Origin: Candidatus Nanoarchaeia archaeon
GTDB taxonomy: Archaea; Nanobdellota; Nanobdellia; Pacearchaeales; GW2011-AR1
Length of the DNA: 64,000 bases
Reading direction: 5' to 3'
NCBI GenBank assembly: GCA_035548435.1
Contig: DASZSY010000003.1
Span: forward strand, 5,311-69,310
Part shown: piece by piece, positions 20,198 through 41,737 of the stretch
Position numbering within the stretch: the stretch's first letter is position 1
Layout of the letters: every line of letters starts with the position of its first letter
Position numbers and translations under genes: made by a program
The notes under the pieces: generated by a model
What the model was told of the DNA's origin: nothing
The model's input: the letters and a program-made list of their open reading frames with translations, nothing else
The model's database searches: none

Positions 20198-20232
20198 GAA
20201 TACCTATATTACCTAACGTTTATTAATCTTAT

Positions 20233-21240: not shown

Positions 21241-21353
21241 CTGTCCTCATAGCTCCGCCACGCTTAAATCTATTGAATCTTGCCTTAGCTCTTTTATCGT
21301 TCTTTGATTTTCTTCTGTCAGGTGTGGCGTAATCCATTTTAGCTTTTAGAAAA

Positions 21354-21806: not shown

Positions 21807-21821
21807 TAGTTAGATTGAGTT

Positions 21822-23655: not shown

Positions 23656-23656
23656 T

Positions 23657-25245: not shown

Positions 25246-25284
25246 AAATTCTCAATGCAAATTCTCTTTATAACTATTACTAGC

Positions 25285-25398
25285 TTAGGTTAGCTTACTG
25301 AAGATGTATATTCCAACGCCAAAGCCTATAATCAAAAATACTATCCAAAGAAGTATTGTAACCAAATTGTCTCCTAAAAGCTGTCCCTTTCTATGCAT
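25285..25398 (-). CDS. Minor pilin-like mini-protein (37 aa), not in ORF track
   Basis: Hand translation gives MHRKG|QLLGDNLVTILLWIVFLIIGFGVGIYIFSKLT; essentially only the class III signal and helix. Confidence 0.45.
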   Translation of the reverse strand: MHRKGQLLGDNLVTILLWIVFLIIGFGVGIYIFSKLT

Positions 25399-26200
25399 TG
25401 CACTTCTCTCCTGCCTTGTTTAAATCAACAAGCAAGTATCTTCCTTCGCTTAAGTAACTTGTTCCAACCTTCTTCAAACAAAATTGAGTGCCCTGGACAG
25501 TTATTGCCGGGTTCTTAAACACGCTATCTCTCCAAATTGTTGCATTTTGGTTTATAACTATAGATTGGACCTCGTTAAATGGATTTACAGGGGCACTATC
25601 AGATGAAGATTGAACCACTCCATAAAATTCTCCATTATTATTTCCATTAAAGAATAATATTCCATACTCAGATTTTCCTTTTGAAACAAAAGCAATAACT
25701 GTTCCCCTTGAATATACTGGAGCAGTGTTTAAGGTCCATTGTCCAATTCCATAACCTATCCATCCTCCAACATTATACCAAGAAGGTTTTTCAGGTTCTA
25801 AACTCTTTGATTTTGCAATCTCAGTTACCTTAACATTATATTCTCCATTGTTAAATATTTCAGCAGAGTTCCTCTTAGACTTATCAAAATAATAATCCTC
25901 GAATATCTGATTCATTTCAGATTCTGTTGTTTCTTTCTTTAGGCCATCAAACTTTGTGTTTGTGGTTAAATCATTCCATCTTTCTCCATCATAAAGTTGA
26001 ACCTTGTCCATTTCAATATCGTATCTTACAATTCCTATCTTCATAGGCTCCTTTGAAGTATCATTGAATCCGGGAGTATTATCAAAATAATTCTGTATTT
26101 TATCAAACCCTTTCATAGGCCCAAGAAATATGATCAAAAGTAAAACAACTGCAATAATAGCTGAAAGAAAAACCCAATTTATCTGTGCTTTATTTTTCAT
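25391..26200 (-). CDS. Pilin-like protein (class III signal peptide)
   Basis: MKNKA|QINWVFLSAIIAVVLLLIIFLG (Ala at -1, Gln at +1). Confidence 0.5.
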   Translation of the reverse strand: MKNKAQINWVFLSAIIAVVLLLIIFLGPMKGFDKIQNYFDNTPGFNDTSKEPMKIGIVRYDIEMDKVQLYDGERWNDLTTNTKFDGLKKETTESEMNQIFEDYYFDKSKRNSAEIFNNGEYNVKVTEIAKSKSLEPEKPSWYNVGGWIGYGIGQWTLNTAPVYSRGTVIAFVSKGKSEYGILFFNGNNNGEFYGVVQSSSDSAPVNPFNEVQSIVINQNATIWRDSVFKNPAITVQGTQFCLKKVGTSYLSEGRYLLVDLNKAGEKCNA

Positions 26201-26204
26201 TTTC

Positions 26205-26357
26205 TTATCCTGCCCTCAGCATATTTTTAATGTAGTCTATTGCTCCGTTTCCTTTTCCACTTAAAGTCATATAAAGAATAATCATAAGTATCAAAACTCC
26301 AATTCCTATAATCCATGGAACTAATGTTTCCCATACTTGCCCTCTTTTATTATTCAT
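26205..26357 (-). CDS. Minor pilin-like mini-protein (50 aa), not in ORF track
   Basis: Hand translation gives MNNKRG|QVWETLVPWIIGIGVLILMIILYMTLSGKGNGAIDYIKNMLRAG. Confidence 0.45.
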   Translation of the reverse strand: MNNKRGQVWETLVPWIIGIGVLILMIILYMTLSGKGNGAIDYIKNMLRAG

Positions 26358-26440
26358 TCTTTTCCGAAAGAGATTTAGTTATTAAGTTTATCGTCTATGC
26401 ATAAAAGTTATAAGTCAAAAGACACTTTATTGTTCACATT

Positions 26441-27265
26441 ATGGTTTCATACAAACTAAGTCTTCATTCGCATACCTCTAATTTCGCTCATTTTCTAGCT
26501 TTCAGTCCCAACAAAAAAGAATATCTTGAAGAGTTAATAAGAAAATTGACAAAAAAACATGGAAACATTGTTCTGGGCGTTTCAAACTTCAATGATGATA
26601 GATATGGCCTTCTCCTCAAGGCAACTTCTCTTCTTTCAAAAGAATATAAAGTAAATACAGACCACAAAGAATGTTTCTTCTCAGTAAAATATCAAAATAA
26701 GAGTATTCATTTTGTCAAATCAGATGAAATAAACACTGAAAAAGGACATATCTTAATAGTAGGATATACAAAAAGCATCCATAATCATAATCTTCATGAT
26801 ATTCTAAAGGCAGCACACAAACAACATTGTATAATTATAGCAAATCATCCTCTTCACACTCCGAGCACTTCCTATTTTTTTGTTAAGAAAATCTTTGGAC
26901 TTCATTCAGACATAAGTTTAACTTCAGAAGACATTAAAAAACACAAAAAAGATTTTGATGCAGTTGAATTAAACTCTTATTTTCCAGAAGATTGGCATAA
27001 AATAAGAGAGTTCAGTAAAAAAACAGGAATTCCAACAGTATCTGATTCAGATTCCCACTTCCTCAATGAAATGTTCACTTCATGGTATGAAATAAAAGAT
27101 CTTTCTTTTTCCAGCCCAAATAAATTCAAGAAAAGTCTTAAGAAAGGCCTTAGGAAAGGTCTTCATATTCATGCAGCCAAATATGGATTTTTGGCAGTTT
27201 ACAAGCATGTTCTGCAAGTAATGATAGAACACTTTGGAAGAAAATTAGGAATATATGTAAATTAG
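26441..27265 (+). CDS. PHP-domain metal-dependent phosphoesterase
   Basis: N-terminal LSLHSHTSNF (H-x-H of the PHP fold); further His/Asp positions (IANHP, DSDSH). Confidence 0.5.
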   Translation: MVSYKLSLHSHTSNFAHFLAFSPNKKEYLEELIRKLTKKHGNIVLGVSNFNDDRYGLLLKATSLLSKEYKVNTDHKECFFSVKYQNKSIHFVKSDEINTEKGHILIVGYTKSIHNHNLHDILKAAHKQHCIIIANHPLHTPSTSYFFVKKIFGLHSDISLTSEDIKKHKKDFDAVELNSYFPEDWHKIREFSKKTGIPTVSDSDSHFLNEMFTSWYEIKDLSFSSPNKFKKSLKKGLRKGLHIHAAKYGFLAVYKHVLQVMIEHFGRKLGIYVN

Positions 27266-27321
27266 CTGTTCTTTGCAGCGCCGTGCAGTAAAGGTTTATA
27301 ACATATTTTTCCCTTGTTTGA

Positions 27322-29433
27322 ATGGTAAAAAAGATGGGAAATACAGACGAAATTATTAGTAAATACAAGAAAAGAATTGAATCTCAACTTTCAGATTCTG
27401 TCGTTTCTTCTTCAACAGAATATCAAGCTTTCAAAGGAGAAATGATTCCGCAGGTATCAAGATATGAGAAATTTGCCCTTTCTCTTGGAAATTTAATTAA
27501 AATAAACGTAGCAGAAAAAGATAAAGTAAAAATTCAAAGAGAACTTGATGCAGCACACGCAAGCGTTACTGCTTCCCAAGCAATTGCTCTTGCAATGTTT
27601 TCTCTTCTTACCTTATTTTTCCTAACTGTTGCAGCAAGTGTTTCAATATATCTTATAACTGGAACTGCTCCAATTCTTTTTGGAGTGCTAGGTTTAATGA
27701 TAAGCTTCTTTGCTTTCTACTATGCATACAGCATGCCTAAAAGATTAGCAAACGAGTGGAGACTTCAAGCAAGCTCACAAATGGTTCCTGCAATTCTTTA
27801 CCTTGTGGTTTATATGAAACATACTTCAAACCTAGAAAGAGCAATTGAATTTGCTTCACAACATCTTGAGGGTCCTTTAGCACTTGATTTCAAAAAATTA
27901 CTTTACAATGTAGAAATAGGAAAGTATTCCACAGTAAAACAATCTCTTGATTTGTATTTAGAGCAATGGAGAGATTACGCTCCAGAATTCATTGAATCTT
28001 TCCACTTAATTGAATCCTCTCTCTACGAACCTTCAGAGTCAAGAAGAGTACAAATCCTTGAAAAGTCTCTGCAAGTAATTCTTGATGGAGTTTATGAAAA
28101 AATGCTCAAATATTCTAGAAGTATTCGTTCCCCACTTACAAACGTATACATGCTTGGAATAATTCTTCCAACTCTTGGTCTCGCTCTTCTTCCTCTTGCT
28201 TCAGCTCTTATGGGAGGAGTGATAAAATGGACTCATGTCTTCCTTCTTTTCAACATAATTGTTCCTTTCCTTGTATTTTACATGTCTTCTGAAGTTTTAT
28301 TGCGTCGTCCTGGAGGTTATGGAGAAACTTCACTGCTTGAAAAAAACCCAGAGTATTCTTCATATGCTTCAAAAACTCCTTGGATTCTAGCTTCAATAAT
28401 TGCAATTCCTCTTTTGATAATAGGATTCTTGCCATTTATTTTACAGTCAGATATTTCTTTAGAGTCTCTTGGACTAGGAATGTTTGGAGAATTCCTTTTT
28501 GACTTCAAAACAATTGCCGGAGTGAGAGTAGGCCCATTTGGTCCAGGTTCTGTTCTCCTTTCTCTTTGTATTCCTATTGCTCTAGGAACTTTCTTTGCAG
28601 TTGCCTATAGTCAAAAAACTAAAAAGTTAATCAAAGCTCGTGAGCAAACAAAAACTCTTGAAGAAGAATTCACAAACTCTCTTTTCCAGTTAGGAAACAG
28701 ACTTGGAGATGGAGTTCCAGCAGAAATTGCTTTCGCTAAAGTTGCTGAAAGCACACAAGGACAAATGACTCACAATTTCTTCTCCGTTGTAAACAAAAAT
28801 ATACAACAAGGTGGAATGTCAGTTGAAAAAGCAATATTTGACCAAAGACAAGGAGCAATAATATACTATCCTTCTGCTTTAATTGCCACCGCAATGAGAA
28901 TTCTTGTTGAATCAGTTAAGAAAGGATTACAAGTTGCAGCCCGTTCTTTAATGTCAATATCTGAATATGTAAAAAACATAGATAAAATAAATCAACGTCT
29001 CAAAGACTTGCTAGCAGAAATAGTTTCAGACATGCGTTCAAATATGACTTTCCTTGCTCCTCTTCTAGCAGGAATTGTTGTCGGTCTTTCAGTGATGATA
29101 ACTTCCATACTTAACAAACTTCAATCCTATCAAACAACCGTTGGTTCTGGCGCGTCTGGCCTTGGAGCATTTGGTTCAATTCCTCAATTGTTCAATGTAT
29201 CAGAAATGGTTCCACCTTATTTCCTTCAAATGAGTATTGGTATTTACATTGTTGAAATAATCTTCATATTAACAATGGCCCTTGTAACAATTGATGCAGG
29301 CCGTGATCCTCTGCGTGAGAAGTTCGACATTGCCCAGAATATAAAGCGCGGCCTCACCCTTTACATCTTAACAGCAGCAGTGTCAACCATTGCTCTGACA
29401 TTATTATCTACAATAGCGTTGGGAAGCCTGTGA
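27322..29433 (+). CDS. Polytopic membrane platform protein, FlaJ/TadC (T2SS-F)-like
   Basis: 703 aa with large cytoplasmic segments alternating with clusters of TM helices. Its size, topology and position in the pilus locus are the basis for this call. Contextual only. Confidence 0.45.
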   Translation: MVKKMGNTDEIISKYKKRIESQLSDSVVSSSTEYQAFKGEMIPQVSRYEKFALSLGNLIKINVAEKDKVKIQRELDAAHASVTASQAIALAMFSLLTLFFLTVAASVSIYLITGTAPILFGVLGLMISFFAFYYAYSMPKRLANEWRLQASSQMVPAILYLVVYMKHTSNLERAIEFASQHLEGPLALDFKKLLYNVEIGKYSTVKQSLDLYLEQWRDYAPEFIESFHLIESSLYEPSESRRVQILEKSLQVILDGVYEKMLKYSRSIRSPLTNVYMLGIILPTLGLALLPLASALMGGVIKWTHVFLLFNIIVPFLVFYMSSEVLLRRPGGYGETSLLEKNPEYSSYASKTPWILASIIAIPLLIIGFLPFILQSDISLESLGLGMFGEFLFDFKTIAGVRVGPFGPGSVLLSLCIPIALGTFFAVAYSQKTKKLIKAREQTKTLEEEFTNSLFQLGNRLGDGVPAEIAFAKVAESTQGQMTHNFFSVVNKNIQQGGMSVEKAIFDQRQGAIIYYPSALIATAMRILVESVKKGLQVAARSLMSISEYVKNIDKINQRLKDLLAEIVSDMRSNMTFLAPLLAGIVVGLSVMITSILNKLQSYQTTVGSGASGLGAFGSIPQLFNVSEMVPPYFLQMSIGIYIVEIIFILTMALVTIDAGRDPLREKFDIAQNIKRGLTLYILTAAVSTIALTLLSTIALGSL

Positions 29434-29467
29434 GATGGAAAATAAAGATAGAAAATTTTCTCTTCTG

Positions 29468-29815
29468 TTAATTAGATTTTTTATACTTCACGATTTTATA
29501 TTTAAAACCTTCTAAGGTAATATTATCTAATTCTGAACCATATTTCATAATACCCAATCTATCTTCAACAAAACCCAAGATTGCACCTATTTGGCGAAAT
29601 TCTCTCTCTAAATCATTTTTTAGCATAGAAAAACCACCATCCGTAAAAGCCCAATAGCCTCCAACATAATTATTAATAAACTTAAGATTTTTTATATTAA
29701 CATGAGTAGCATATCCTTCAACGATTGCATCTCCGTCTTTATCACAAAAATAAAAACGAATCTCTTTAAAATTTTTTAAATCTTTTTTATTTAAGACATT
29801 TTGCATATTTGACAT
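29468..29815 (-). CDS. Hypothetical protein
   Basis: Last gene of the ATPase transcription unit; no motif. Confidence 0.25.
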   Translation of the reverse strand: MSNMQNVLNKKDLKNFKEIRFYFCDKDGDAIVEGYATHVNIKNLKFINNYVGGYWAFTDGGFSMLKNDLEREFRQIGAILGFVEDRLGIMKYGSELDNITLEGFKYKIVKYKKSN

Positions 29816-29856
29816 TTTAATTAACAGCAGCCTATTAATTTAAGCCTTTTCACCAA

Positions 29857-30129
29857 CTAGACAACACAACTAAATATTCGTGGATGAACAAATTCAAAAT
29901 AAAGATACACTAACCAAATAAGAAACATGTAGGGACTAATATATCCTAAAAAATAAGCGTCAAACCCTTGAATACTCCAGATTAAGAGCAGTATGAAGGT
30001 ATATATAATTGCTAAATAAAGATAAATCTTATTTGATATCGGATCTAATTTTTGGAGATTTTGTTGTGATTTAATATATTTTTTATTATGCATTTCATCT
30101 CCTTTCCTACACCATTCTAAGAAACCCAT
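29857..30129 (-). CDS. Small membrane protein
   Basis: Two TM helices. Confidence 0.3.
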   Translation of the reverse strand: MGFLEWCRKGDEMHNKKYIKSQQNLQKLDPISNKIYLYLAIIYTFILLLIWSIQGFDAYFLGYISPYMFLIWLVYLYFEFVHPRIFSCVV

Positions 30130-30169
30130 GCTAAGCTATATAACTTATTTTATTTAAATCTGTCTTCAA

Positions 30170-30460
30170 CTAATTTTCAACATCACCAACATAAACTGAT
30201 TTTAGAACATCGTTGCCCTTCTTACAAACACAGACTTCAGAATCTGGGTCGTAGAAACCCCATTTTGTATCTTCCCAATAAGTTGTTAAGGCAGAGTTAT
30301 CTTCGCAAACTTCATAACTACAATAATTGTCCATTCTTTCTTCATGAGCAATTGAAACTCCACCAATAATAAAAATTGAAGTTTCAAGCAAAAATAAAAT
30401 TATAAAAATTATTGCAGTAATTCTCCAACCAGAATTAACTTTATTGCTTTCTAAAGGCAT
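30170..30460 (-). CDS. Small N-terminally anchored Cys-rich protein (possible pilin-like)
   Basis: MPLESNKVNSG|WRITAIIFIILFLL then C..C....C.C cysteines. Confidence 0.3.
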   Translation of the reverse strand: MPLESNKVNSGWRITAIIFIILFLLETSIFIIGGVSIAHEERMDNYCSYEVCEDNSALTTYWEDTKWGFYDPDSEVCVCKKGNDVLKSVYVGDVEN

Positions 30461-30490
30461 TATTAATCAAATTAATACTTCTATTTAAAC

Positions 30491-32764
30491 CTATTTCATC
30501 CCAATCTGCTTGTAAAACCATTTCTTCCACTCAGGGAAAACATGTTCACTCAAAGGAAGGCCGTACTTTTCTCTTGCTTCGTCTGAAAGTCTGTGGAAAG
30601 CAGTGTTTGACTTAACTATGAACTCAGCCTCTAGAATATCATCTCTTCCCAGCGTTTCAGCAGCTTTAACAATTTCTTCTTTTATCATTGCCCTAAGGTT
30701 AATGTTATCATATACAGCATCCCAGTTTCCAGCCCATCCTTTTACATTTCCTGCAATGCTTTTTAGTATTTCACTATCTCCATTCATAAGTTCAGGAGTT
30801 GGCTCTAGCTCATCTTTCTCAACATTATATCTTAGAAGGTCTACAAATCCTCCCTCTCTCGCAGGATCGTTGTCCCAGTGCTTTCTTACTTCAGTAACCT
30901 GCATAACTCTTTTTATTGCATGCATTCCATCTGCAGTTTTAACTGGATTTGCAACTATAATCAAATCAGTAGCTTTGAAAGAAGTTGCAGGCACTCCAAG
31001 GTCGTTTACAACTCTATCAAATACTCCGTAGGGACTATCTCCGTGTATTGTTCCAGCAACAACGTTTGCGAGTGCTCCAACTCTCATTGCTTCATATAGT
31101 GCCTTAGCTTCAGTACTTCTTACTTCTCCAACAATTAAAGCGCTGTCTCCAAGTCTAAGGCTTGTTCTTATTCCCTCGCTTGCTTCAACTTCGCTGCTTC
31201 CTTCAACAAGAGCAGAACGCACTTTCATTCGGAGTACATCATAACCTATTTTCCTAAGAGCATCAATTGGAAGTTCTAAAGTATCTTCAATAACTATTGT
31301 TCTAAACTTAGGCATTATTTCAAGGAGCAAGCTTCCGAGCAGTGAAGTTTTTCCGCTGCTTCTTGTTCCAGCAACAAGCAATGTTCTATTTCCATCAATC
31401 AAAAATGAAAGAAGTCCTGCTGCAAATGGAGTAAGCATTTTATGTTTTACAAATAAAGGTAATGTCCAAGGTTTGTCTCTGTGTCTTCTAATTGAATAAG
31501 CAAGTCCTGATGGAGAAAGAGGCTCTTTTATTGCTGCAACTCTTGCTCTTATTTCTCCAAATACCATATCAGTGTCAAGAATAGGATTTGCTTCGTCTAA
31601 AGGGCGACCGGATTGCAATCTTAATTTCGCAGCCCATGAATCTCCATCTTCATAACTTGGAATGATGTTTGTTATACATTCTTCATAACTTTGATGTCTT
31701 ATGAATATTGGATTCTGTGCAATTGGAGCGTTTATTGAAATATCTTGTATCTTATCATCAAGAAGAAGTATTTCAAGTAATCCAAATCCTATAGTATATC
31801 TTACAAGAATATTTGAAAGTCTTATAAGTTCCTTATGTGAGAGAGAAACATTTCTTGTTCTTGAAAGCTCTGAAAGTAAATCTCTTGAAACATTAAAGAA
31901 AACCTGCCTTGTTCTTTCAGGGTCTGTAAATTCCTCTGCCTTTGGTCTATGTTCAGTCAAAACATTTCTTGCCAGTCCCAAGAGTAAATGATGTTCTTCA
32001 GTTAAAGAATATTCAGGAGGAAGAATATGATAAATAAATTTAGGGTCATCTATTTTCTTAAGTATTGTAACTGGAATTGTGTCTCCTTCATACGAAAGAG
32101 TATATTGGTCAACAAGCTCTGCATCATTTGGAAGCTGAGCAACAAGTCTTGTGAATGTGAAATTAGGTAATATGTCTGGTCTGAATGCTGCCTTGTACAA
32201 TTCCCTACTTCCATATGAGTATCTTGTCATTGAACTCTGGAAAGATTTCATAAAATTAGTGTTTTGCAGCATTAAAGCAAATTTTTCCAAGAATCTTATG
32301 TATTGAAGTAATCCAGAAGCATTCATTACTTCCCCAGAGCTTAATTGGTTTCTAAGTGCTGAAATTCTACTTTTTAGTTCAGAGTAACAAGCTAGTGGAT
32401 CCTGCTTAAGAAGAGAAAGAAGGTAAGAAAGGTCAGCGTGAACCTCTGGAACATTTCCAAAAAGAGAAAGTCTTTCAGTTGAAAGTATATTTTCTTGTTT
32501 TGTTAAAAAAGAATAAAGTCTTGATATATCCAAAAGTAGTTTCACCTGCTCAAAACCATGGTGATAATTTCTTTGTTGAACAAAAACTATTCTAGAAATT
32601 GAAGGGTGTTCCTGCAAAACATCTATTGTTCTTGCAAAAACAGAAGGCATATCAGCTAGTGAAGGAACAAATGGAGCATTAAGATAGTTGACATACAAAA
32701 CTTCTTCTCCCTGTCTTCTTTCTACCTCAACAGAGTATAGCTCGGCCCCTTCTTTAAACATCAT
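30491..32764 (-). CDS. Type II/IV secretion system ATPase, FlaI/PilB/VirB11 family, with approx 300-aa N-terminal extension
   Basis: Walker A GTRSSGKTSLL, Asp box IVIEDTLEL, Walker B/His box ALIVGEVRSTEA...GTIHG. Confidence 0.8.
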   Translation of the reverse strand: MMFKEGAELYSVEVERRQGEEVLYVNYLNAPFVPSLADMPSVFARTIDVLQEHPSISRIVFVQQRNYHHGFEQVKLLLDISRLYSFLTKQENILSTERLSLFGNVPEVHADLSYLLSLLKQDPLACYSELKSRISALRNQLSSGEVMNASGLLQYIRFLEKFALMLQNTNFMKSFQSSMTRYSYGSRELYKAAFRPDILPNFTFTRLVAQLPNDAELVDQYTLSYEGDTIPVTILKKIDDPKFIYHILPPEYSLTEEHHLLLGLARNVLTEHRPKAEEFTDPERTRQVFFNVSRDLLSELSRTRNVSLSHKELIRLSNILVRYTIGFGLLEILLLDDKIQDISINAPIAQNPIFIRHQSYEECITNIIPSYEDGDSWAAKLRLQSGRPLDEANPILDTDMVFGEIRARVAAIKEPLSPSGLAYSIRRHRDKPWTLPLFVKHKMLTPFAAGLLSFLIDGNRTLLVAGTRSSGKTSLLGSLLLEIMPKFRTIVIEDTLELPIDALRKIGYDVLRMKVRSALVEGSSEVEASEGIRTSLRLGDSALIVGEVRSTEAKALYEAMRVGALANVVAGTIHGDSPYGVFDRVVNDLGVPATSFKATDLIIVANPVKTADGMHAIKRVMQVTEVRKHWDNDPAREGGFVDLLRYNVEKDELEPTPELMNGDSEILKSIAGNVKGWAGNWDAVYDNINLRAMIKEEIVKAAETLGRDDILEAEFIVKSNTAFHRLSDEAREKYGLPLSEHVFPEWKKWFYKQIGMK

Positions 32765-32849
32765 CTCAAATACAGAGAGAGAACAGATTAAATATCTTGC
32801 TCATGTTATCGATAGCACGGTTTATAAAGTCTAAAAGGTTCATGTCTAA

Positions 32850-33161
32850 ATGGAAGAGGATGGTAGCCAGGTCTTTATGGACCTGAACACTAGAATAAGA
32901 GAACTTGAAGAAAGACAAAGACTCTTAAAAGATAGGACATTTTTAATTGGACGTGGAGTGGTAGACATAAAAGAAAAAGCTTCTTTGGAATTAAGAGAAT
33001 TAAGAAAAGCAGTTACAATATTGCAACAAGAAAATGCACAACTTAAAGAAACTATGCAGCTAATGTCTGAAAAATTAAATAACACCTCAAATAAAGAAGA
33101 ACTTCAAATGGTGTTAAGACAACTTAACATATTAAGAGGAGTAAAGAATGGGAACAGTTGA
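32850..33161 (+). CDS. Coiled-coil protein
   Basis: Heptad-like ELEERQRLLKD...LRELRKAVTILQQENAQLKE. Confidence 0.35.
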   Translation: MEEDGSQVFMDLNTRIRELEERQRLLKDRTFLIGRGVVDIKEKASLELRELRKAVTILQQENAQLKETMQLMSEKLNNTSNKEELQMVLRQLNILRGVKNGNS

Positions 33162-33786
33162 AGAAGTAGCTTTCATGAAAAGAGAAGGAAGATCAGATGC
33201 AGAAATAGCTTCAAATCTAAGAAAGAAAGGTTTACCTGAACAAGAAATAACTTCGGCAATATCCCAAACAAAAATAAAAGAAGCCGTTGCAGCCCCTTCC
33301 GCAGAAGAAGCACATACTCAAGAATATGGTGAAGAGCAAATGTCTCCTTCTCTTATGTCTCCTGGAGCACAGTATCAATCAGCTCCTGTAGAAGAACAGC
33401 CGCAGCAGGAAGCAGCTGTAGAACAACAATCTGCTTATCCTGAATATCAATCATATGCCCAAACAGGAAGCTACGACCAACAACAATACGCTTCTGGAAA
33501 TATTGGAGCAGAAGTCATAACAGAGATTGCAGATCAAGTTGTAGCAGAAAAACTTTCTCCAATTCTAGGTGCAATGGATAAAATACTTGATATGAAATCA
33601 AATACCGAAGCACAGCTGAGATACCTTGATGAAAGGCTAAAAAGAATTGAAAAAATAATAGATAGACTTCAACTTTCTGTTCTGCAGCGCGTGGGAGAAT
33701 ATGTTTCAAACGTGGAAGAAATAAAACAAGAAATGCAAGAAACTCAAAAAACCTTCAAAGCACTAGTTGATAAAAAAGGAATGTAA
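33148..33786 (+). CDS. Acidic Q/E-rich coiled-coil protein
   Basis: Low-complexity Q/E/A/Y stretch followed by a coiled coil; overlaps the previous gene by 14 nt. Confidence 0.35.
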   Translation: MGTVEEVAFMKREGRSDAEIASNLRKKGLPEQEITSAISQTKIKEAVAAPSAEEAHTQEYGEEQMSPSLMSPGAQYQSAPVEEQPQQEAAVEQQSAYPEYQSYAQTGSYDQQQYASGNIGAEVITEIADQVVAEKLSPILGAMDKILDMKSNTEAQLRYLDERLKRIEKIIDRLQLSVLQRVGEYVSNVEEIKQEMQETQKTFKALVDKKGM

Positions 33787-33807
33787 AAATTTGATTTTCA
33801 GTAATCT

Positions 33808-34227
33808 TTAATTTATTCTAAAAAATCTAACTTCATCTCCATATTCCGCTAAAACATCTTCAACTCTGTGTTCGTATGCATGTCCATATCCCCACTTAGA
33901 TAATATCTGACCTGGCTGCATAATTCTTCCTATGTGCGCTTGTTCTCTCATTCCTGGCAATCCAGAAATGTAAATTGCTAAATCTCCAACTTCTGGAACA
34001 TAAACTTCTCTATGTCCATCACAAAATAACACTACATCATCAAAGTAAACTGGCTTTGGAAATTGATTCCATTCAAATAAATAAGTGAGACATTGAACTC
34101 CAATCATTTCATCCATTTTTCTATTCCTTCTTTCTGCTAAGGTTATTCCATCAAATACAAATTCATCTGGATTAAGTCCATGAACTCTTGAAATTTCAAT
34201 TCTTCTTTCAGTTATAGGTAAATGCAT
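33808..34227 (-). CDS. Possible CHAP/NlpC-P60-like papain-fold domain protein
   Basis: GVQCLTYLFEW (QC catalytic-Cys context) and PEVGDLAIYISG...AHIGRIM (pGDl...gHvgiv-like His region). No signal peptide. Slightly higher GC. Tentative. Confidence 0.3.
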   Translation of the reverse strand: MHLPITERRIEISRVHGLNPDEFVFDGITLAERRNRKMDEMIGVQCLTYLFEWNQFPKPVYFDDVVLFCDGHREVYVPEVGDLAIYISGLPGMREQAHIGRIMQPGQILSKWGYGHAYEHRVEDVLAEYGDEVRFFRIN

Positions 34228-34255
34228 TATTTTCTTCTAAAAAGTCAGTTTATAA

Positions 34256-34792
34256 CTATTTCTTTCCAGGCTTTGCTGCGTCCATGGCAGGTTTAGCAAT
34301 TATGAAACTTATAACTGCAGTTATTATAATCAAAAGAATAGCTCCAAACACACGAGGAGAGAAAATCCAATCAGTCACAACTAAAATGTTTGGATCTCCA
34401 CCTGCAGGAGAGTTCCAAGGCAAGTATGGGCTAAAGTAAGATGAAAATACAACCACTCCAGAAACTACAAAGAAAACAATCAATACAATTCCAAATACTT
34501 TAGGCATTGCTTTATCCCATTCTTTAAAGTCGAAAAATCCTTTAGTCATTGCAAGAATAAGGAAAAAGCTCACAAGAAGTACTGCAAACCATGGGATAAT
34601 ACTTGAAACATATGTTCTAGGTCCAGCTGCACTTACAAATACTGTAGCAATGATGAAAGAAGTGAAAAGATGCATAAATTCAGAAGTGAATATCTTTGCT
34701 GTTTTAGATGCAGCATAAACTACAATGAAAACAACAAAATAAGTTAGTAAAGGTACAAAATATCCAAATGAAGTTAAATCTATTCCTGCCAT
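34256..34792 (-). CDS. Paralogous 4-TM membrane protein (copy 3 of 3)
   Basis: Same length class and TM layout as the two upstream copies. Confidence 0.4.
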   Translation of the reverse strand: MAGIDLTSFGYFVPLLTYFVVFIVVYAASKTAKIFTSEFMHLFTSFIIATVFVSAAGPRTYVSSIIPWFAVLLVSFFLILAMTKGFFDFKEWDKAMPKVFGIVLIVFFVVSGVVVFSSYFSPYLPWNSPAGGDPNILVVTDWIFSPRVFGAILLIIITAVISFIIAKPAMDAAKPGKK

Positions 34793-34796
34793 ATTG

Positions 34797-35342
34797 TTAA
34801 CTTCTTACAACTCCAGGTGGAGTCTTTCCAGCTGGGCCTTTTATAGGAGCGCTTTCCCAATTCCAAGGTTCTGCAATAACTACAATCAAAGCAAGTAAAA
34901 GTCCTCCAATGATTACAACAGAACCATATTGGTCCCACCAAACTCCTCCGTCAGATAAGTTCCAACCAAGGAAGTCAAATGCCTTGTAAATAACTGTCAC
35001 AGCTATAACTGCAGAAACTGCCCACATTGTTCCATACCATCCCTTAAGCCATTCTCCAGGTATAAACATTGCAGACATTATAAGTAAAACAACAAGCACT
35101 GAAAGACCTATTCCAAATCTTGGGAATATCTCAGAGAAAAATACAGGAACATAATCAAATCTTAAAGATATCAAAGCAACTGCCAAGGCAACTGTTAATG
35201 TAACTCCTTTGTTTGAACCAAGAACATTTGTAGCACTAAGTATTCCAAAAACTACTGCAAAAATTATCAAGAAGGGCAATACATAATCAAATACTCCATA
35301 TGCTTCCCAATCAGCTATAACGTTAACAAAACTAAATACCAT
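34797..35342 (-). CDS. Paralogous 4-TM membrane protein (copy 2 of 3)
   Basis: FDYVLPFLIIFAVVFGILS aligns with GVLPFILVFSLVYAVL of copy 1. Confidence 0.4.
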   Translation of the reverse strand: MVFSFVNVIADWEAYGVFDYVLPFLIIFAVVFGILSATNVLGSNKGVTLTVALAVALISLRFDYVPVFFSEIFPRFGIGLSVLVVLLIMSAMFIPGEWLKGWYGTMWAVSAVIAVTVIYKAFDFLGWNLSDGGVWWDQYGSVVIIGGLLLALIVVIAEPWNWESAPIKGPAGKTPPGVVRS

Positions 35343-35401
35343 AAATCATATACCTCTGTGTCGTTTATATATATTTCGTTAGAAAATTAGTTCTATTAAC
35401 C

Positions 35402-35929
35402 TTACTTCTTTCCTTCTTCGCTTCCGCCAGATTTTCCGCTGAAAGCCATCACAACTGCAATAGCGCCAGCCACCAAAACAACAAATAATATGTTGCTCCA
35501 AAGTCCATCACTACTTGTATCAAAATAATCTGATATTGTATCTATACTTCCAGTGTAATAAAGAACTGCTCCTGCAGTAACTATTGCTGCCAAGATTCCT
35601 ATAGCATATTTAACATATTTGTGCATTTCAAACTTTCCAGGCTCATATGCCATTCCCCACATTACCATAAATACAAGTAAAACAACAAGACCTACAGCCA
35701 ACACAGGAACAAGTTGAACAATAACACTAACTGCGTTAGCAAATGCAATTGTCAAAAGTGCAACAGAAAATGAAACTAATGCATCAAGTTGATTTTTTCC
35801 TTCTCCTAGAACCTTTGATTTTTGTAAAACTGCATAAACAAGTGAGAAAACAAGAATGAAAGGTAAAACTCCTTCAACAAAGAAAGGACTTGATAGGATT
35901 GTAAAACCGCCGTATGTTGGACTAGCCAT
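35402..35929 (-). CDS. Paralogous 4-TM membrane protein (copy 1 of 3)
   Basis: See the two downstream copies; tandem triplication. Confidence 0.4.
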   Translation of the reverse strand: MASPTYGGFTILSSPFFVEGVLPFILVFSLVYAVLQKSKVLGEGKNQLDALVSFSVALLTIAFANAVSVIVQLVPVLAVGLVVLLVFMVMWGMAYEPGKFEMHKYVKYAIGILAAIVTAGAVLYYTGSIDTISDYFDTSSDGLWSNILFVVLVAGAIAVVMAFSGKSGGSEEGKK

Positions 35930-35939
35930 TGTAAATTAT

Positions 35940-36230
35940 CTAAATTGCAGGCTCTTCAGCTTCTTCCATACCTGCATCAGAATCATCTCTATTTGGTAAT
36001 GAAGCTCTGTTAACTACTACCACATCTCCAATTGCCTTAACAAACTGGTGTGGAATAACTGCTCCTCTTGCTCCACCAAGCATTGTCATAAAGCTTCCAT
36101 TTATTCTTACTTTCCATCCATCTACCTTATTATCAGAAAGGTTAACATCTTCAATTGTTCCAAAGTAATCTCCATCAGAGGTATATACCTGTTTTCCTAG
36201 TATTTCACTAATCTTTTTTATCTTCAGCAT
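35940..36230 (-). CDS. PRC-barrel domain protein
   Basis: ILGKQVYTSDGDYFGTIEDVNLSDNKVDGWKV... pattern typical of PRC barrels. Confidence 0.55.
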   Translation of the reverse strand: MLKIKKISEILGKQVYTSDGDYFGTIEDVNLSDNKVDGWKVRINGSFMTMLGGARGAVIPHQFVKAIGDVVVVNRASLPNRDDSDAGMEEAEEPAI

Positions 36231-36310
36231 GTCAAAATCTGTTAAATTCAGTATTTATACTTTATGCTTGTCTGGTGAATATTATTTATTTGATATTATT
36301 TAGCATTAGT

Positions 36311-36937
36311 TCACTTTTTTGCCTGCATAAAAACAAGTTTTCTCTTAAGTTTAGGTTGCTTTAAAACCACTTTAAATCTTTTTTCAGACAGCTTCTGGAC
36401 TTTAAATTTTTTAAATAATTTTCTCACTTCCGCCTTGGAAAAGAAATGGCAAATAATCCCGTTCTTTTTCATAATAGTGTTTTTCTCAATAATATTTCCC
36501 CCAGATTTTTCCTGCCTTAAATCTCCTCTCATAAAATCTTCAAATATCAATACTCCTCCCTTGCGAAGAATTCTGTGCATTTCCTTTACAGCTAATTTTC
36601 TATCTTTCTCAAGTAAGTTGTTTAAAACATAATAGCAAAGAATAACATCAAAAGCTTCATCAGCAAATCCTGAATTGATTATATTTCTTTGGACAAATTT
36701 AATATTTCTTTGATTGAATTTTCTTTTGCAGATTAATATTGCTTGTTTTGATGAATCTATGGCAGAAACAAGTTTAGGTCTTTGATTGATTATTTCAGCT
36801 AAATTCTTTCCATTTCCAACCCCAATCTCCAAGATTACCTTATTTTTCAAAACTTTGGGAATAGAGTGCCTTTCCCTTCTCCATTTACTATTATTTTGCT
36901 TATATTCGTAATCCCATATTTCTTCTTGATTTTCCAT
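36311..36937 (-). CDS. Class I SAM-dependent methyltransferase
   Basis: Motif I ILEIGVGNGKN; acidic residue after beta2 (AIDSS). Confidence 0.65.
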   Translation of the reverse strand: MENQEEIWDYEYKQNNSKWRRERHSIPKVLKNKVILEIGVGNGKNLAEIINQRPKLVSAIDSSKQAILICKRKFNQRNIKFVQRNIINSGFADEAFDVILCYYVLNNLLEKDRKLAVKEMHRILRKGGVLIFEDFMRGDLRQEKSGGNIIEKNTIMKKNGIICHFFSKAEVRKLFKKFKVQKLSEKRFKVVLKQPKLKRKLVFMQAKK

Positions 36938-37021: not shown

Positions 37022-37648
37022 ATGAATAAAGAGGAAATAGTGCACGTTCTGTCTGCAATAGTTATTTTTACCATAGTTTTAGCTTTTAGTAAGATAATTT
37101 CTGGAAATTTCCTTTATCTAGGAACTGCATTTATTTCTGCTGCAGTTGTAATAGTTTCAAATATCTTTGGAAAAAAAATAATGGCAAACATGCTTGATTC
37201 AGATGTTTCTCATAGAATTTGGTTTAGCAATTATTTTGGAGCAAAACAGCTATCAAAACCCTTCCCTACAGGAGTTGTTTTACCTCTTTTAGCAACACTT
37301 CTTACCTCTGGAACATTAAAAATAGGATCCATACTAGAATACGAAACTTCTGCTAAAAAGATAAGAGCTGCAAAAAGATTTGGTTACTATAGCTATGCAG
37401 AAATGACTGATTGGCACAATGCATTAATTGGAGCAGCAGGAATAGTAATGACGTTAATAATTCTAGCAATAACTTATGTAGCAGACTTTGAACCAATAGC
37501 AAAAGCAGCAGCATTCTATATGTTCTGGAATATGATTCCGGTTTCAAACACTGATGGAACTCAAATCTTCTTTGGTTCTAAGATACTTTGGACAATTCTT
37601 TCTATACTCTCATTAATGTCTGCACTATATGCTGTAGCTTTAATTTAA
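37022..37648 (+). CDS. Hypothetical polytopic membrane protein
   Basis: About 6 TM helices. Confidence 0.3.
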   Translation: MNKEEIVHVLSAIVIFTIVLAFSKIISGNFLYLGTAFISAAVVIVSNIFGKKIMANMLDSDVSHRIWFSNYFGAKQLSKPFPTGVVLPLLATLLTSGTLKIGSILEYETSAKKIRAAKRFGYYSYAEMTDWHNALIGAAGIVMTLIILAITYVADFEPIAKAAAFYMFWNMIPVSNTDGTQIFFGSKILWTILSILSLMSALYAVALI

Positions 37649-37652
37649 TCCC

Positions 37653-39194
37653 ATGGTGTTGAAAGTTCAGGCAAGAGATTATCAGAAAAAAATATATGAA
37701 ACTGCACTATATCATAACACTCTAGTTGTATTGCCGACAGGTCTTGGAAAAACCTTAATTGCTTTAATGCTTTCAGTTAAACGTCTTCAAGAACATCCAG
37801 GTAAGAAAGTACTTCTTGTTGCTCCAACCAAACCTTTAGTTGAACAACATGCTAAAAGCTTCAAAGCAGAAATACCTGAATTATTTGCAGATGTACAAGT
37901 ATTAACTGGAGAATCCAACGCAACCCTTAGAGCTAAAACCTGGAACACTGCAGATATTATAATTGCAACTCCTCAAAGTATTGCCAATGATTTAGAAAAG
38001 TATCTTTATACCCTAGAAGACGTTTGTTTGGTAATAATAGACGAAGCACATAGATGTTTGAAAAATTATGATTACACTAAAATAGTTCAAAGATATAAAA
38101 GTACTTCACCTACACAAAGAATTTTGGGTTTGACAGCTTCTCCAGGTTCAAATATTGATAATGTAAGAGAAATATGCAATCATTTAGATGTTGAAGAAAT
38201 AGAAATAAGAAATAGAGAATCGCTTGATGTTAAACCATATTTACAAGAAAGAGAACACGATAAAATAGAAGTTCCCTTTCCTCCAGAGTTTGAAGAATTA
38301 AGATTCTTCCTTAGAAAAATATATGATATGAAAGTAGATCAACTGCGAGAAAGGTCTCTTCTTTTCGGACCTGCAAACAAAATTACTTTGCTTAAGCTTC
38401 AGCAGCGTTTGGCGATGCAAGCTTCTCAAAAAAATGGAAATGCGATGTATGGAATGTCTTTAACTGCCCAAGCAATAAAAATAAGTCATGCAGTTGAATT
38501 ACTAGAAACCCAAACTCTCTCAGGACTAAAAGCATACCTTGATGGATTATTAGAGCAAGCAAATAATAAACAAACAAAGGCTGCAGAAAATTTAGTAAAA
38601 ATGCCTGAATTCAATGGAGCTTATATTTCTGTGAATAATTTATTAGCTCAAAAAAAAGAACATCCTAAAATAACTGCCATAGTCCAGCTTGTAAAAGAAA
38701 CCTTAAAGGAAAAAGCAAATGGAAAAATAATTGTGTTCACCCAGTTTAGAGAATCTGCTTCTCAAATATCTCTGCAATTAAACTCCATAGAGAATGTAAA
38801 AGCAAAAATTTTCATAGGACAAACAAAAAAGAAAGATATGGGAATGTCTCAGAAAGAACAAAAACAAATTTTAGACCAGTTTAGAAGCGGAGATATAAAT
38901 GTTTTATGTGCAACTTCCATAGGAGAAGAGGGCTTAGATATTCCTGAAGTGGATATGGTTGTTTTCTATGAGCCTATTCCCTCGGCAATAAGAAAAATAC
39001 AGCGCGCAGGTCGTACAGCCCGTCTAGCCCCAGGAAAAATAGTGATGCTTATAACAAAAGACACAAAAGACGAAGCAAACAACTATGCTTCAACTGCCCG
39101 TGAAAAAAAGATGTATTCAATAATAGAAAAAGTCAAGCAAGAAATTTCTAAAAAATCTATTTCTTTATCTAGATTTTCTCCCAAGTCTGTCTAA
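37653..39194 (+). CDS. hef: Hef-like SF2 helicase (FANCM/ERCC4-helicase domain)
   Basis: Walker A PTGLGKT, DEAH box IIDEAHRC, motif VI QRAGRTAR; 513 aa with no nuclease domain. Confidence 0.75.
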   Translation: MVLKVQARDYQKKIYETALYHNTLVVLPTGLGKTLIALMLSVKRLQEHPGKKVLLVAPTKPLVEQHAKSFKAEIPELFADVQVLTGESNATLRAKTWNTADIIIATPQSIANDLEKYLYTLEDVCLVIIDEAHRCLKNYDYTKIVQRYKSTSPTQRILGLTASPGSNIDNVREICNHLDVEEIEIRNRESLDVKPYLQEREHDKIEVPFPPEFEELRFFLRKIYDMKVDQLRERSLLFGPANKITLLKLQQRLAMQASQKNGNAMYGMSLTAQAIKISHAVELLETQTLSGLKAYLDGLLEQANNKQTKAAENLVKMPEFNGAYISVNNLLAQKKEHPKITAIVQLVKETLKEKANGKIIVFTQFRESASQISLQLNSIENVKAKIFIGQTKKKDMGMSQKEQKQILDQFRSGDINVLCATSIGEEGLDIPEVDMVVFYEPIPSAIRKIQRAGRTARLAPGKIVMLITKDTKDEANNYASTAREKKMYSIIEKVKQEISKKSISLSRFSPKSV

Positions 39195-40086
39195 GTAGTC
39201 TAGTTGGAGCTTCTCCATATTTATCAGGTCTAAATTGCCAATTCCAAGACTGTGTAAAGACATATTGAAACAATGAAGATAAAGTATGTTTAGGATCTCT
39301 TTTTCCTTTTTCAGCTAAATTTTTCCAAAAATTAACGCTTGCTAAACAAGAAGGCCAAAGATGACTAAGCCAGTGTTCTGAAGTAATCCTATAGTCCTGC
39401 GTTCCATCAACTTCTTTGACAAGCTTAAATTTAGATTTTGCACAATTTTCTAATTGACCTTGTTTAGGATAATAACAACCAAGATTTCCTAAAACGAAAG
39501 CATAATGCATATTATCAGAGTTCCAAGGTAATGAAAGAGGATTTTGTTGTACTACCAAAGGATCTGGAATTCTGTTATAATGTATTGCAGTTGTAACAAA
39601 TCTCTGCCCTCTCCCTAAAAATGAACTAACTCTATCAAATAAATCTACATATATTTTATCTTGTTTACCTTCAGCAGCATCCTGCGGAGTAACAAAGTGT
39701 TCTAAAGAACCATTTGCAATAACTCCATGAAAACTACCAACATGAAAAGGAGTAACATCTCTATAATCTTGTAAGAGTACAACAAGTCCCTTCTTATTGC
39801 ATCTTTTAACTTGTATTGGTGAGATTGTAAGTCCTACTCCAGATATTCTTCTTTCTTTAGCAGCCTCAAGCAAGGTTCCATTCCCGCACCCAATTTCCAA
39901 AATTCTACCTCCCTCTTGCGGAAGATGTAATTCATCTAAAATAAAATTGTGTTGATTTCTCTGTGCTTCTAAATAAGGAGTCAGTGGATTTCCATTGTAA
40001 ATTCCTTCTGTAAAATCTTCTATTCCTTGTCCAACCCACGAATCAATTAAATCATAAAAAGAAACTGCAGTTTTATTTCTACTCAT
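39169..40086 (-). CDS. Class I SAM-dependent methyltransferase (CFA-synthase-like)
   Basis: Motif I ILEIGCGNGTLLE; 305 aa. Confidence 0.55.
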   Translation of the reverse strand: MSRNKTAVSFYDLIDSWVGQGIEDFTEGIYNGNPLTPYLEAQRNQHNFILDELHLPQEGGRILEIGCGNGTLLEAAKERRISGVGLTISPIQVKRCNKKGLVVLLQDYRDVTPFHVGSFHGVIANGSLEHFVTPQDAAEGKQDKIYVDLFDRVSSFLGRGQRFVTTAIHYNRIPDPLVVQQNPLSLPWNSDNMHYAFVLGNLGCYYPKQGQLENCAKSKFKLVKEVDGTQDYRITSEHWLSHLWPSCLASVNFWKNLAEKGKRDPKHTLSSLFQYVFTQSWNWQFRPDKYGEAPTRLLRQTWEKI

Positions 40087-40136: not shown

Positions 40137-40772
40137 GTGCCTCTAGACATATTTAGAAAAGCAATAGAAAAAAAGCCAGAAAAAACAAAAATAATTGTTG
40201 ATTTCAGAGAGAAGAACTCTCTTGTTCCCTCAGAACTTGTCAACCTTGATTGTCATATTGATTTCAAGCAATTAGAAGTTGGAGATTACATTTCAGGTCA
40301 ATATATTATAGAAAGAAAAACCATGCAGGATTTGCAAGCATCCCTGATTTCCAAAAGAATATTTTCTCAAATTCAGTCTTTGAAATTGCAAAAAAATCCA
40401 ATTTTAATAATAGAAAATAAAGAAGAATGGAAATTAAATAAAAATGCATTTTATGGGCTTGTATTATTTATAGTAAAAACAAATATTCCTTTAATATTTT
40501 CAAATAATCCTAAAGAAACTGCTAAGTATATCAAATTATTTTCAACTGAAAAAAAGCAAAAAGAATTTTCCTATAGATTCAATAAAAAAGCAGGTTCAAA
40601 AGAAGATATTGCAAAATATGTTTTAGAAGGCTTCCCAGGTATAGGCAGGGCAACTTCAGAGAAATTGCTTAAAAAATTTGGAAACCTGAAAAATATATTT
40701 CTAGCTTCAGAAGAAGAGCTACAAGAAGTTTTAGGTAAAAAAGCTCTTGAATTCAAGAAAATTATAGATTAG
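40137..40772 (+). CDS. xpf: XPF/ERCC4-type nuclease with C-terminal HhH2
   Basis: GDYISGQYIIERKTMQDL (ERK nuclease motif) and EGFPGIGRATSEKLLKKFG (HhH). Confidence 0.75.
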   Translation: MPLDIFRKAIEKKPEKTKIIVDFREKNSLVPSELVNLDCHIDFKQLEVGDYISGQYIIERKTMQDLQASLISKRIFSQIQSLKLQKNPILIIENKEEWKLNKNAFYGLVLFIVKTNIPLIFSNNPKETAKYIKLFSTEKKQKEFSYRFNKKAGSKEDIAKYVLEGFPGIGRATSEKLLKKFGNLKNIFLASEEELQEVLGKKALEFKKIID

Positions 40773-41737
40773 CTAGCAACCTTATCTACATTCTTGTAAA
40801 CTATGCTTGAGATTTTAGACATTACTCTATCTGCCTCAAACTCATCTGCCCCAGTACTCATTATACATAAGATATATGGTTTTACAGGATGATATATAAT
40901 TCCACAATCGTGATAATGATTTATCCCCTCTGAATAAAGATATCCTACTTTATGTGAAACTGGAACTTCTTTCGGAACTCCAGCTGGAAGTTGAGTGTTA
41001 TAATCTGTTTCAGACATTATTGATAAAGCAAGTTCAGAGAAAGTTCTTCTTAAATATGCTGAGTAGTATAATGATCTTAAAATATTACTATACTGTTTAG
41101 GCCCTAGGTAGCTTATATGGTCTCCATCTATAGGTAGACCCATTGCAAGTCTTGCTTCAAGAATATCTTCTGTAGTTAAAAAGTTGGTTTGAAGAACTCT
41201 TAAAGCAGTATTATCAGATTCCTTAATTAAATATTCCAGCAATTCTTTTATTGTTAAAGTGTATCCTGCTCCTTTCTGAGCTAAAGTCCCAGACATAAAG
41301 TTTAGGTCATCCTGTGTTAAGGTGACTTTTTGCTCTAAACTTAATTCTCCTTTTTCAACTCTTTTAAGAATTGCAACCATTACTGGTACTTTCAATAAAC
41401 TAGCTGAAATGAATTCTTCTTTTTCATTTAGTCCAATCCATGCCCCTGTCTTCAAATCCTCAAAATATAGCCCATACTCTCCTTGCAAGTTTGAATTATT
41501 CATAAATTCAATTAAATCAGTTCTCATATCTTGGAATCCAACAGAATATTGATTTTGTACCTCAAGAAAATCCTCTGTTTCCATCCAAGCAATATCTGGA
41601 GAAATATGTGCAAACTTAGGAGTATACTTCACAGTATAATAATGAGAAATATAAAAGTTTAGCCCAATGGAAATTAAGAGTGAAACAAAGACTGCTGCAA
41701 GTAGTTTGTTATTCTTTAAAGTCTCTTTAATTTGCAT
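40769..41737 (-). CDS. Class A beta-lactamase-like serine hydrolase (membrane-anchored)
   Basis: SxxK (ASLLK), SDN (ESDNTA) and K[ST]G-like (HKVGY) motifs; N-terminal TM helix. Confidence 0.5.
   Translation of the reverse strand: MQIKETLKNNKLLAAVFVSLLISIGLNFYISHYYTVKYTPKFAHISPDIAWMETEDFLEVQNQYSVGFQDMRTDLIEFMNNSNLQGEYGLYFEDLKTGAWIGLNEKEEFISASLLKVPVMVAILKRVEKGELSLEQKVTLTQDDLNFMSGTLAQKGAGYTLTIKELLEYLIKESDNTALRVLQTNFLTTEDILEARLAMGLPIDGDHISYLGPKQYSNILRSLYYSAYLRRTFSELALSIMSETDYNTQLPAGVPKEVPVSHKVGYLYSEGINHYHDCGIIYHPVKPYILCIMSTGADEFEADRVMSKISSIVYKNVDKVAS

Follow-up and report, generated by a model that had tools for sequence, protein, structure and literature searches.

The founding PRC-barrel protein is the H subunit of the photosynthetic reaction centre, whose barrel lies on the cytoplasmic face of the homologous polytopic subunits L and M. 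In CdvA, which belongs to the ESCRT (Cdv) division machinery of archaea, a PRC barrel and a coiled coil form part of a membrane-associated scaffold. The PRC-barrel proteins CdpB1 and CdpB2 of haloarchaea are needed when cells divide by means of FtsZ, and they polymerise close to the membrane (bioRxiv 10.1101/2023.03.28.534543, 10.1101/2023.03.28.534520). CdpA, a protein with four transmembrane (TM) segments, ties CdpB1/CdpB2 and SepF to the membrane and so organises the division ring (PMC12126565). Here we describe an operon in a 64,000-nucleotide stretch of DNA from a Candidatus Nanoarchaeia archaeon (contig DASZSY010000003.1; referred to below as the window), in which the gene for a small PRC-barrel protein (PRC) is followed by genes for three membrane proteins, A, B and C. 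The window has a GC content of about 33%, and the host is a low-GC archaeon of the DPANN group. No description of the PRC-A-B-C module was found in the literature searched. The comparisons below indicate that it is a real, lineage-wide and undescribed operon of Woese-/Pacearchaeota-type Nanoarchaeota, for which a role as a scaffold is plausible. The host organisms are uncultivated, and the module is known from its genes alone.

A conserved operon for a PRC-barrel protein and three membrane paralogues

The operon lies on the minus strand (Table 1). Open reading frame (ORF) calls recovered five minus-strand ORFs, for PRC, A, B, C and a protein of 139 amino acids (aa), exactly where a preliminary description of the window had placed them, and the motifs quoted there (VLPFILVFSLVYAVL, VLPFLIIFAVVFGILS, GVQCLTY and AHIGRIM) are all present in the sequence. 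NCBI record VHA12_00685 and protein A have the same sequence (100% identity). The intergenic spacing is 10 bp between PRC and A, 59 bp between A and B, 4 bp between B and C, and 28 bp between C and the gene for the 139-aa protein. A TATA-like element, TATAAATA, is found 22–29 nt 5′ of the PRC start codon, a position which suggests that the PRC-A-B-C transcript is leaderless.

The first protein of the operon had been described as a PRC barrel, and this assignment holds: it matched Pfam PF05239 over residues 6–74 with an E-value of 8.3e-10 and a score of 39.0 bits, against a cut-off of 21.2. Its matches in the PDB were to archaeal PRC barrels of the single-domain kind, namely 8QZO (E 1.3e-9), 8ONW (E 1.5e-8) and MTH1895 (1PM3; E 1.3e-3), of which we take 8ONW and 8QZO to be the published CdpB1:CdpB2 crystals. 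PRC is the best-conserved member of the module (79 orthologues), and its acidic C-terminal tail is variable. A second, stand-alone PRC-barrel gene, with a product of 86 aa that matched 8QZO at E 1.2e-7, is present elsewhere in the window, with an unannotated ORF of 145 aa next after it. The second gene is compatible with a CdpB1/CdpB2-like pair, and its product could be a CdpB2-like partner of the PRC protein of the module.

To compare the three membrane proteins we used both single sequences and profiles. BLASTP aligned A with B at 2e-10 (32% identity over 85 residues), A with C at 1e-3 and B with C at 4e-3. With small orthologue alignments, hhalign gave 98.2% for A-B, 97.6% for A-C and 73.6% for B-C. 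With alignments of 72–85 orthologues per paralogue from reference genomes, the corresponding values were 99.7% (E 1.8e-26 over 153 columns, near full length), 99.2% (E 2e-19) and 98.5% (E 1.5e-15). The same profiles compared with a different polytopic membrane family of the same loci, as a negative control, gave 0.2%, and in a scan of 3,492 ORFs they matched the expected genes only. The similarity that the preliminary description had read from the N-terminal helices is therefore significant, and these alignments argue that A, B and C are genuine, ancient paralogues, of which C is the most divergent. The same description had spoken of a tandem triplication. The paralogy stands, but a recent tandem event does not: each protein has its own orthologues and the order A-B-C is constant across the lineage, so that the triplication must be old and the three genes code for distinct subunits.

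Kyte–Doolittle hydropathy plots of A, B and C each showed five hydrophobic segments, in place of the four-TM layout originally assigned to them. The Lys and Arg residues of A are all confined to loops 1 and 3 and to the C-terminal tail, and the same is true of nearly all of those in B and C; loop 4 is acidic or aromatic. This confinement of the basic residues implies a topology with the N-terminus outside and the C-terminus inside, with 10–20 residues following the last hydrophobic segment. An AlphaFold monomer of A had a mean predicted local distance difference test score (pLDDT) of 72.8, with values above 90 at residues 20–60, and its helices (15–38, 46–94, 104–126, 128–136 and 142–167) are in accord with the five hydropathy segments. 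Conservation in A peaks over the predicted extracellular N-terminus, TM1, cytoplasmic loop 1 and TM2 (TILSSP..LPFLLVF..VFAILQKSKILG.GKKQIDA), and is also strong in TM3 and in the TG.WDY motif of outer loop 4.

Searches of Pfam and NCBIfam with A, B, C and 36 homologues yielded scattered sub-threshold matches to membrane families and no consistent family, and none of these proteins matched the T2SSF platform profile (PilC, TadB/C, ArlJ). The PDB contains no relative of A, B or C among its structures. They constitute a previously undescribed membrane-protein family. A class III (pilin-type) signal was considered for the N-terminus of A and rejected, as there is no basic n-region and no Gly/Ala cleavage motif. 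An apparent B-C fusion in one locus (L020), which would have been Rosetta-stone evidence, proved to be an artefact from a masked run of N.

When 1.84 billion cluster representatives were searched with a profile of the family, 2,807 matched at E ≤ 1e-3, 1,267 of them at E ≤ 1e-10. All named members, without exception, are from Nanoarchaeota, Woesearchaeota or Pacearchaeota. At least 456 matching stretches were confirmed in species-representative genomes of GTDB, of which those with names are likewise all Nanoarchaeota. For the analysis of synteny, ORFs were called in the best 80 of these at least 456 loci and scored with profiles of every gene, and each count below is expressed relative to the loci with enough flanking sequence for the feature to be visible.

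The gene order is near-invariant. Genes for the Hef helicase and for a membrane protein of 208 aa in the window (mem208) lie on one strand, followed by PRC, A, B and C on the other; two coiled-coil genes (cc212 and cc103) then converge on the module, and beyond them are genes for an ATPase of about 757 aa, on the same strand as the module, and for a membrane protein of about 717 aa. Of 77 loci, 75 had the PRC gene 5′ of A and in the same orientation, 61 of them at a distance of 400 bp or less. Both B and C were present in 66 of 71 loci, C being undetected in L044 and L084 (loci are given L numbers). The coiled-coil pair was present in 58 of 64, the ATPase in 50 of 52 and mem208 in 70 of 73. 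A distant lineage (L090 and L092), whose A protein is about 35% identical, retains the series PRC-A-B-C-cc212-cc103-ATPase. The survey thus supports one part of the grouping first proposed for these genes, in that the order PRC-A-B-C is nearly fixed, but not the other, as the gene for the 139-aa protein was found in none of the 80 loci.

Comparison with described systems and possible roles

The module shares with the CdpA-CdpB1/CdpB2-SepF system of Haloferax volcanii a small single-domain PRC protein together with one or more multi-pass membrane proteins whose soluble parts on the PRC side are short. The logic proposed for both would be the same, a layer of PRC barrels held at the inner face of the membrane. 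There are also clear differences. Here an operon links PRC to A, B and C, whereas no cdpA-cdpB operon is reported in the papers on CdpA and CdpB, and three paralogous five-TM subunits of 165–200 aa stand in place of a single four-TM CdpA (HVO_0739) of 328 aa. In CdpA a four-TM N-terminal domain is followed by a long disordered cytoplasmic linker and a small C-terminal domain (PMC12126565), an architecture that A, B and C do not have. This published architecture sets them apart, and they would at most be analogues of CdpA.

Compared with the reaction centre, the module is without cofactor-binding subunits or photosynthesis genes, its PRC protein has no TM helix of its own, and A, B and C, with no match in the PDB, are unrelated to L and M. 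The resemblance to CdvA lies in the conserved proximity of a PRC gene and two coiled-coil genes and is one of domain type only. Unlike in CdvA, barrel and coiled coils belong to different proteins, encoded in separate operons that converge, and there are no CdvB or CdvC genes nearby.

We tentatively favour the reading, in which our confidence is limited, that A, B and C together make up a heteromeric anchor which holds a CdpB-like PRC-barrel scaffold to the membrane, by analogy with CdpA-CdpB of haloarchaea. The operon is a firm link, from which we conclude that the membrane proteins act together with the PRC barrel, and the separate conservation of three paralogues in a fixed order argues that they are distinct subunits of one complex. 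On this reading A, B and C, each with five TM segments, N-out and C-in, would assemble as a hetero-oligomer in the cytoplasmic membrane. Their cytoplasmic loops, which are short, conserved and rich in Lys, would be the docking sites of the PRC protein, whose acidic tail may make the contact, and the outcome would be a PRC-barrel layer or polymer right beneath the membrane. The machinery that it serves would be that of division-ring or envelope organisation. The AlphaFold models are monomers (of A and of the 139-aa protein), and the contacts among A, B, C and PRC are inferred. Our preference for an anchor comes from the operon link, taken together with the polymers of CdpB1 and CdpB2 and the anchoring function of CdpA in haloarchaea. 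The clean positive-inside pattern, and the concentration of conservation in TM1, cytoplasmic loop 1 and TM2, support it. If correct, the operon offers a concrete candidate for membrane tethering of PRC barrels and the division ring beyond haloarchaea, in which a CdpB-type barrel is hard-wired to three dedicated membrane proteins.

Several observations weigh against an anchor of this kind. PRC barrels are generic adaptor domains, found also in RimM, in the reaction centre H subunit and in CdvA. A stretch of unrelated genes, 0.4–7.5 kb long, separates PRC from A in about 15 of 77 loci, so that co-transcription of PRC-A-B-C cannot be obligatory. The membrane proteins have neither CdpA's cytoplasmic linker nor its C-terminal domain. 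Moreover, CdpA binds CdpB via a cytoplasmic N-terminal helix (PMC12126565), whereas the N-termini of A, B and C are predicted to be extracellular. Neither ftsZ nor sepF was identified in the vicinity of the module, and the conserved genes that do lie nearby are those of a type IV pilus-like system, which favours a different role.

Accessory subcomplexes of type IV filament machines include PilM/N/O in bacteria and, in the archaellum, ArlX or ArlCDE and ArlF/G. PRC-A-B-C could, with cc103 and cc212, form a comparable subcomplex (for alignment, as a stator or as a scaffold) of a Nanoarchaeotal pilus-like machine composed of the 757-aa ATPase, the 703-aa membrane protein of the window, pilins and an A24 peptidase, with PilM/N/O, ArlX and ArlCDE as the models; we consider this only slightly less likely than the anchor. 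As in the described machines, small membrane and coiled-coil proteins are encoded beside an assembly ATPase and a platform. The ATPase gene adjoins in nearly every locus, sharing with cc103 a divergent promoter region, and the block from PRC to the ATPase persists in L090 and L092 despite an altered upstream flank. Rearranged loci also keep the module by pilus genes: L042 and L065 have such genes inserted between PRC and A, the ATPase directly follows C in L086, a protein of the 703-aa type directly follows C in L025, and an A24-like peptidase lies just past cc103 in L060. In the window, the region 19367–36230 is pilus-related save for a few ORFs, and there are conserved motifs in the extracellular loops of A, B and C (TG.WDY in A, for example). 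Against this, the Hef helicase gene, which is surely unrelated, is conserved equally well in the block; synteny therefore extends beyond functional units, and the neighbourhood alone is weak evidence. PRC-A-B-C is its own transcription unit, convergent with the coiled-coil pair, and four loci (L004, L013, L078 and L089) have no pilus gene in the flank at hand. No type IV filament system is known to contain a PRC-barrel protein, or the trio of five-TM proteins, and the module has no kinship in sequence or fold with PilM/N/O, ArlX/ArlCDE or ArlF/G. The 'platform' and the 'pilins' are themselves without profile support. A combination of the two roles, in which A, B and C with a CdpB-type PRC protein would be a Nanoarchaeota-specific scaffold coupling a PRC cytoskeletal layer, by way of the two coiled-coil proteins and the extended ATPase, to the pilus-like machine, seems to us rather unlikely. 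The type IV pilus-like system of DPANN archaea is believed to serve in host contact, and a coupling scaffold would, if it exists, tie cell-division-type scaffolding to the host-attachment apparatus of ultra-small symbionts. The survey in any case exposes a conserved gene block around the pilus-like system.

Three small paralogous polytopic subunits in one operon are also a common layout in membrane transport, and A, B and C might together be a small heteromeric channel or transporter that carries an ion or small solute, with PRC as a cytoplasmic regulatory or gating subunit. Conservation that peaks in and beside the TM helices would fit such a function, and Pfam and NCBIfam assign the proteins no other. 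However, the TM cores contain no conserved charged or polar residues hinting at a permeation path, the operon has no gene for an ATPase or a substrate-binding protein, and PRC barrels are not known to regulate transporters, so that we judge this improbable. The preliminary description had proposed one membrane complex of A, B, C, PRC and the 139-aa protein, the last as a cytoplasmic amidase- or transglutaminase-like enzyme. In the window its gene is co-directional with C and immediately downstream, all four of the loci that have the gene (the window, L007, L008 and L009, out of about 92) carry it in the slot between C and cc212, and the protein combines the NlpC/P60 fold with a Cys and a His that are conserved. 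The gene is, however, missing from every one of the 80 reference-genome loci with the module; only three homologues of the protein were found among 5.8 billion proteins searched; and the copy in L007 is on the opposite strand. In addition, it has a TATA-like element of its own, TTATAAA, which abuts the stop codon of C and lies 22–28 nt 5′ of its start codon, and because of this position it may be transcribed alone. The slots around PRC, A, B and C take unrelated inserts elsewhere, including toxin-antitoxin genes, regulators and a methyltransferase. The gene is thus a separate, lineage-specific accessory insertion that is incidental to the module, and a papain-like enzyme as a partner of the membrane proteins is very improbable and, as a general statement, largely refuted.

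The 139-aa papain-like protein

Within the four known members of the 139-aa family, Cys46, His98, Ser110-Lys-Trp-Gly and His120 are invariant. The distance between Cys46 and His98 is 52 residues, compared with 51 in Escherichia coli MepS, and the strand GDLAIY...AHIGRI resembles GDLVLF...RHVGIY of MepS in a weak hhalign match (E 0.075). The ungapped hhalign alignment misplaces the His, and the correspondence of Cys, His and Ser is a manual reading; on this reading the third catalytic position of MepS (His +12) corresponds to the invariant Ser110. In an AlphaFold monomer with a mean pLDDT of 64.5, residues 60–139 were well modelled and residues 43–56, around Cys46, scored below 50. No match to the NLPC_P60, CHAP or LRAT profiles was obtained even at E-values up to 10, and sequence and profile searches of the PDB with the family gave nothing useful. 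All four members gave a sub-threshold match to DUF7689 (best E 0.0016), a family for which the literature searched likewise contained no description. The likeness to CHAP and NlpC/P60 enzymes noted earlier is therefore borne out in the papain-like fold and in the spacing of the invariant Cys and His, and finds no support in the profiles of those families. The model points to a papain-like α+β fold that belongs to the NlpC/P60 superfamily at the level of fold only.

The protein has no N-terminal hydrophobic segment, in agreement with the lack of a signal peptide remarked on before, and it is therefore a cytoplasmic protein. In this it differs from the NlpC/P60 enzymes of clan CA family C40 (MepS, Bacillus subtilis LytE and CwlO, human PLAAT/HRASLS), as it does in the third catalytic position, which would be Ser110 or possibly His120. 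As there is no signal peptide and the archaeal host has no murein wall, it is not a cell-wall hydrolase.

Neighbouring genes and insertions

The features of the window discussed here are listed in Table 1.

Table 1. Positions of the module, TATA-like elements and nearby genes in the window
Feature	Position	Strand	Evidence or remark
PRC-barrel protein, 96 aa	35940–36230	minus	ORF call and Pfam PRC; leading gene of the operon
Membrane paralogue A, 175 aa	35402–35929	minus	ORF call
Membrane paralogue B, 181 aa	34797–35342	minus	ORF call
Membrane paralogue C, 178 aa	34256–34792	minus	ORF call
139-aa protein, NlpC/P60-like accessory	33808–34227	minus	ORF call
TATA-like element TATAAATA of PRC gene	36252–36259	minus	direct reading of sequence
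TATA-like element TTATAAA of 139-aa gene	34249–34255	minus	direct reading of sequence
cc212, 212 aa	33148–33786	plus	alignment; convergent with PRC-A-B-C
cc103, 103-aa coiled-coil protein	32850–33161	plus	co-transcribed with cc212, divergent from ATPase gene
Type II/IV secretion-family ATPase (FlaI/TadA-related), 757 aa	30491–32764	minus	Pfam T2SSE, E 4.8e-14
Polytopic membrane protein, 703 aa	27322–29433	plus	conserved neighbour adjoining the ATPase
Pilin-like gene run, about seven small proteins	21354–25245	minus	class III signal-like N-termini, read from translations
AI-2E-family transporter	20233–21240	plus	AI-2E_transport, E 4.3e-44; outside the pilus context
Prepilin peptidase	19367–20197	minus	Peptidase_A24, E 3.3e-11
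S-adenosylmethionine-dependent methyltransferase	36311–36937	minus	Pfam Methyltransf_11, E 6e-19
mem208, 208-aa membrane protein	37022–37648	plus	weak Pfam M50 match
Hef, helicase part	37653–39194	plus	
Methyltransferase between the Hef parts	39169–40086	minus	
Hef, ERCC4-nuclease part	40137–40772	plus	
Class A beta-lactamase-family protein	40769–41737	minus	Pfam Beta-lactamase2, E 6e-42
Second PRC-barrel protein, 86 aa	54015–54275	plus	PDB 8QZO
ORF, 145 aa	54312–54749		unannotated

The cc212 protein begins with a conserved domain of three helices. A low-complexity linker rich in Pro and Gln, whose length varies greatly, joins this domain to a conserved coiled coil at the C-terminus. Its C-terminal helix (RLKRIEKIID.LQ.SVL..VG.YV) is highly conserved, and its relatives are 186–336 aa long. 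A homology search gave 584 members of this family, from one lineage, that of the window. Profile searches with cc212 and cc103 returned weak coiled-coil noise only (DivIVA at E 0.015, DUF7310). The label 'MerR regulator' attached to some of the JGI homologues of cc212 is unsupported, and we do not accept it.

An N-terminal extension of about 300 aa distinguishes the ATPase, which matched the NCBIfam models for the TadA family (6.8e-40) and FlaI (8.6e-36), in both cases under the curated cut-offs. The adjoining 703-aa protein is a candidate for the pilus platform by position only; it gave no match to T2SSF, to any other profile or in the PDB. The pilin-like proteins likewise have no profile support, and both they and the platform candidate are too divergent for current profiles.

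In relatives of the window the mem208 gene is mostly divergent from the PRC gene, and its product keeps a C-terminal FWNxIPxSxLDG (NxxPxxxLDG) motif. Among 69 family members HExxH was seen in only 3, for which reason mem208 is probably a degenerate, catalytically inactive protein resembling site-2 proteases (M50). In L090 (2265–2936) and L092 (6826–7527) a gene of the TraB/PrgY/GumN family lies between the mem208 homologue and the PRC gene. In the window this interval is occupied by a methyltransferase gene, which has the same place in one close relative (L009) only and is an insertion outside the conserved module.

The gaps between PRC and A or between A and B are insertion sites for 0.4–7.5 kb of variable genes in L042, L065, L041, L053, L079, L084 and L044. 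The insert between PRC and A in L042 (763–7989) contains pilin-like genes and an A24-like peptidase, and that in L065 (5139–7995), at the same site, codes for a protein of 900 aa with a pilin-like N-terminus. Those of the remaining loci contain nucleotidyltransferase/HEPN-like pairs, Lrp/AsnC-like regulators and a cysteine desulfurase-like gene.

Beyond mem208, two genes encode the helicase and the ERCC4 nuclease of Hef separately, a split also seen in related loci, and in the window a methyltransferase gene on the opposite strand lies between the two parts. Next to the nuclease gene is a gene for a class A beta-lactamase-family protein, which is found in L009 too. Its presence in an archaeon may reflect horizontal acquisition or a role other than that of a lactamase.

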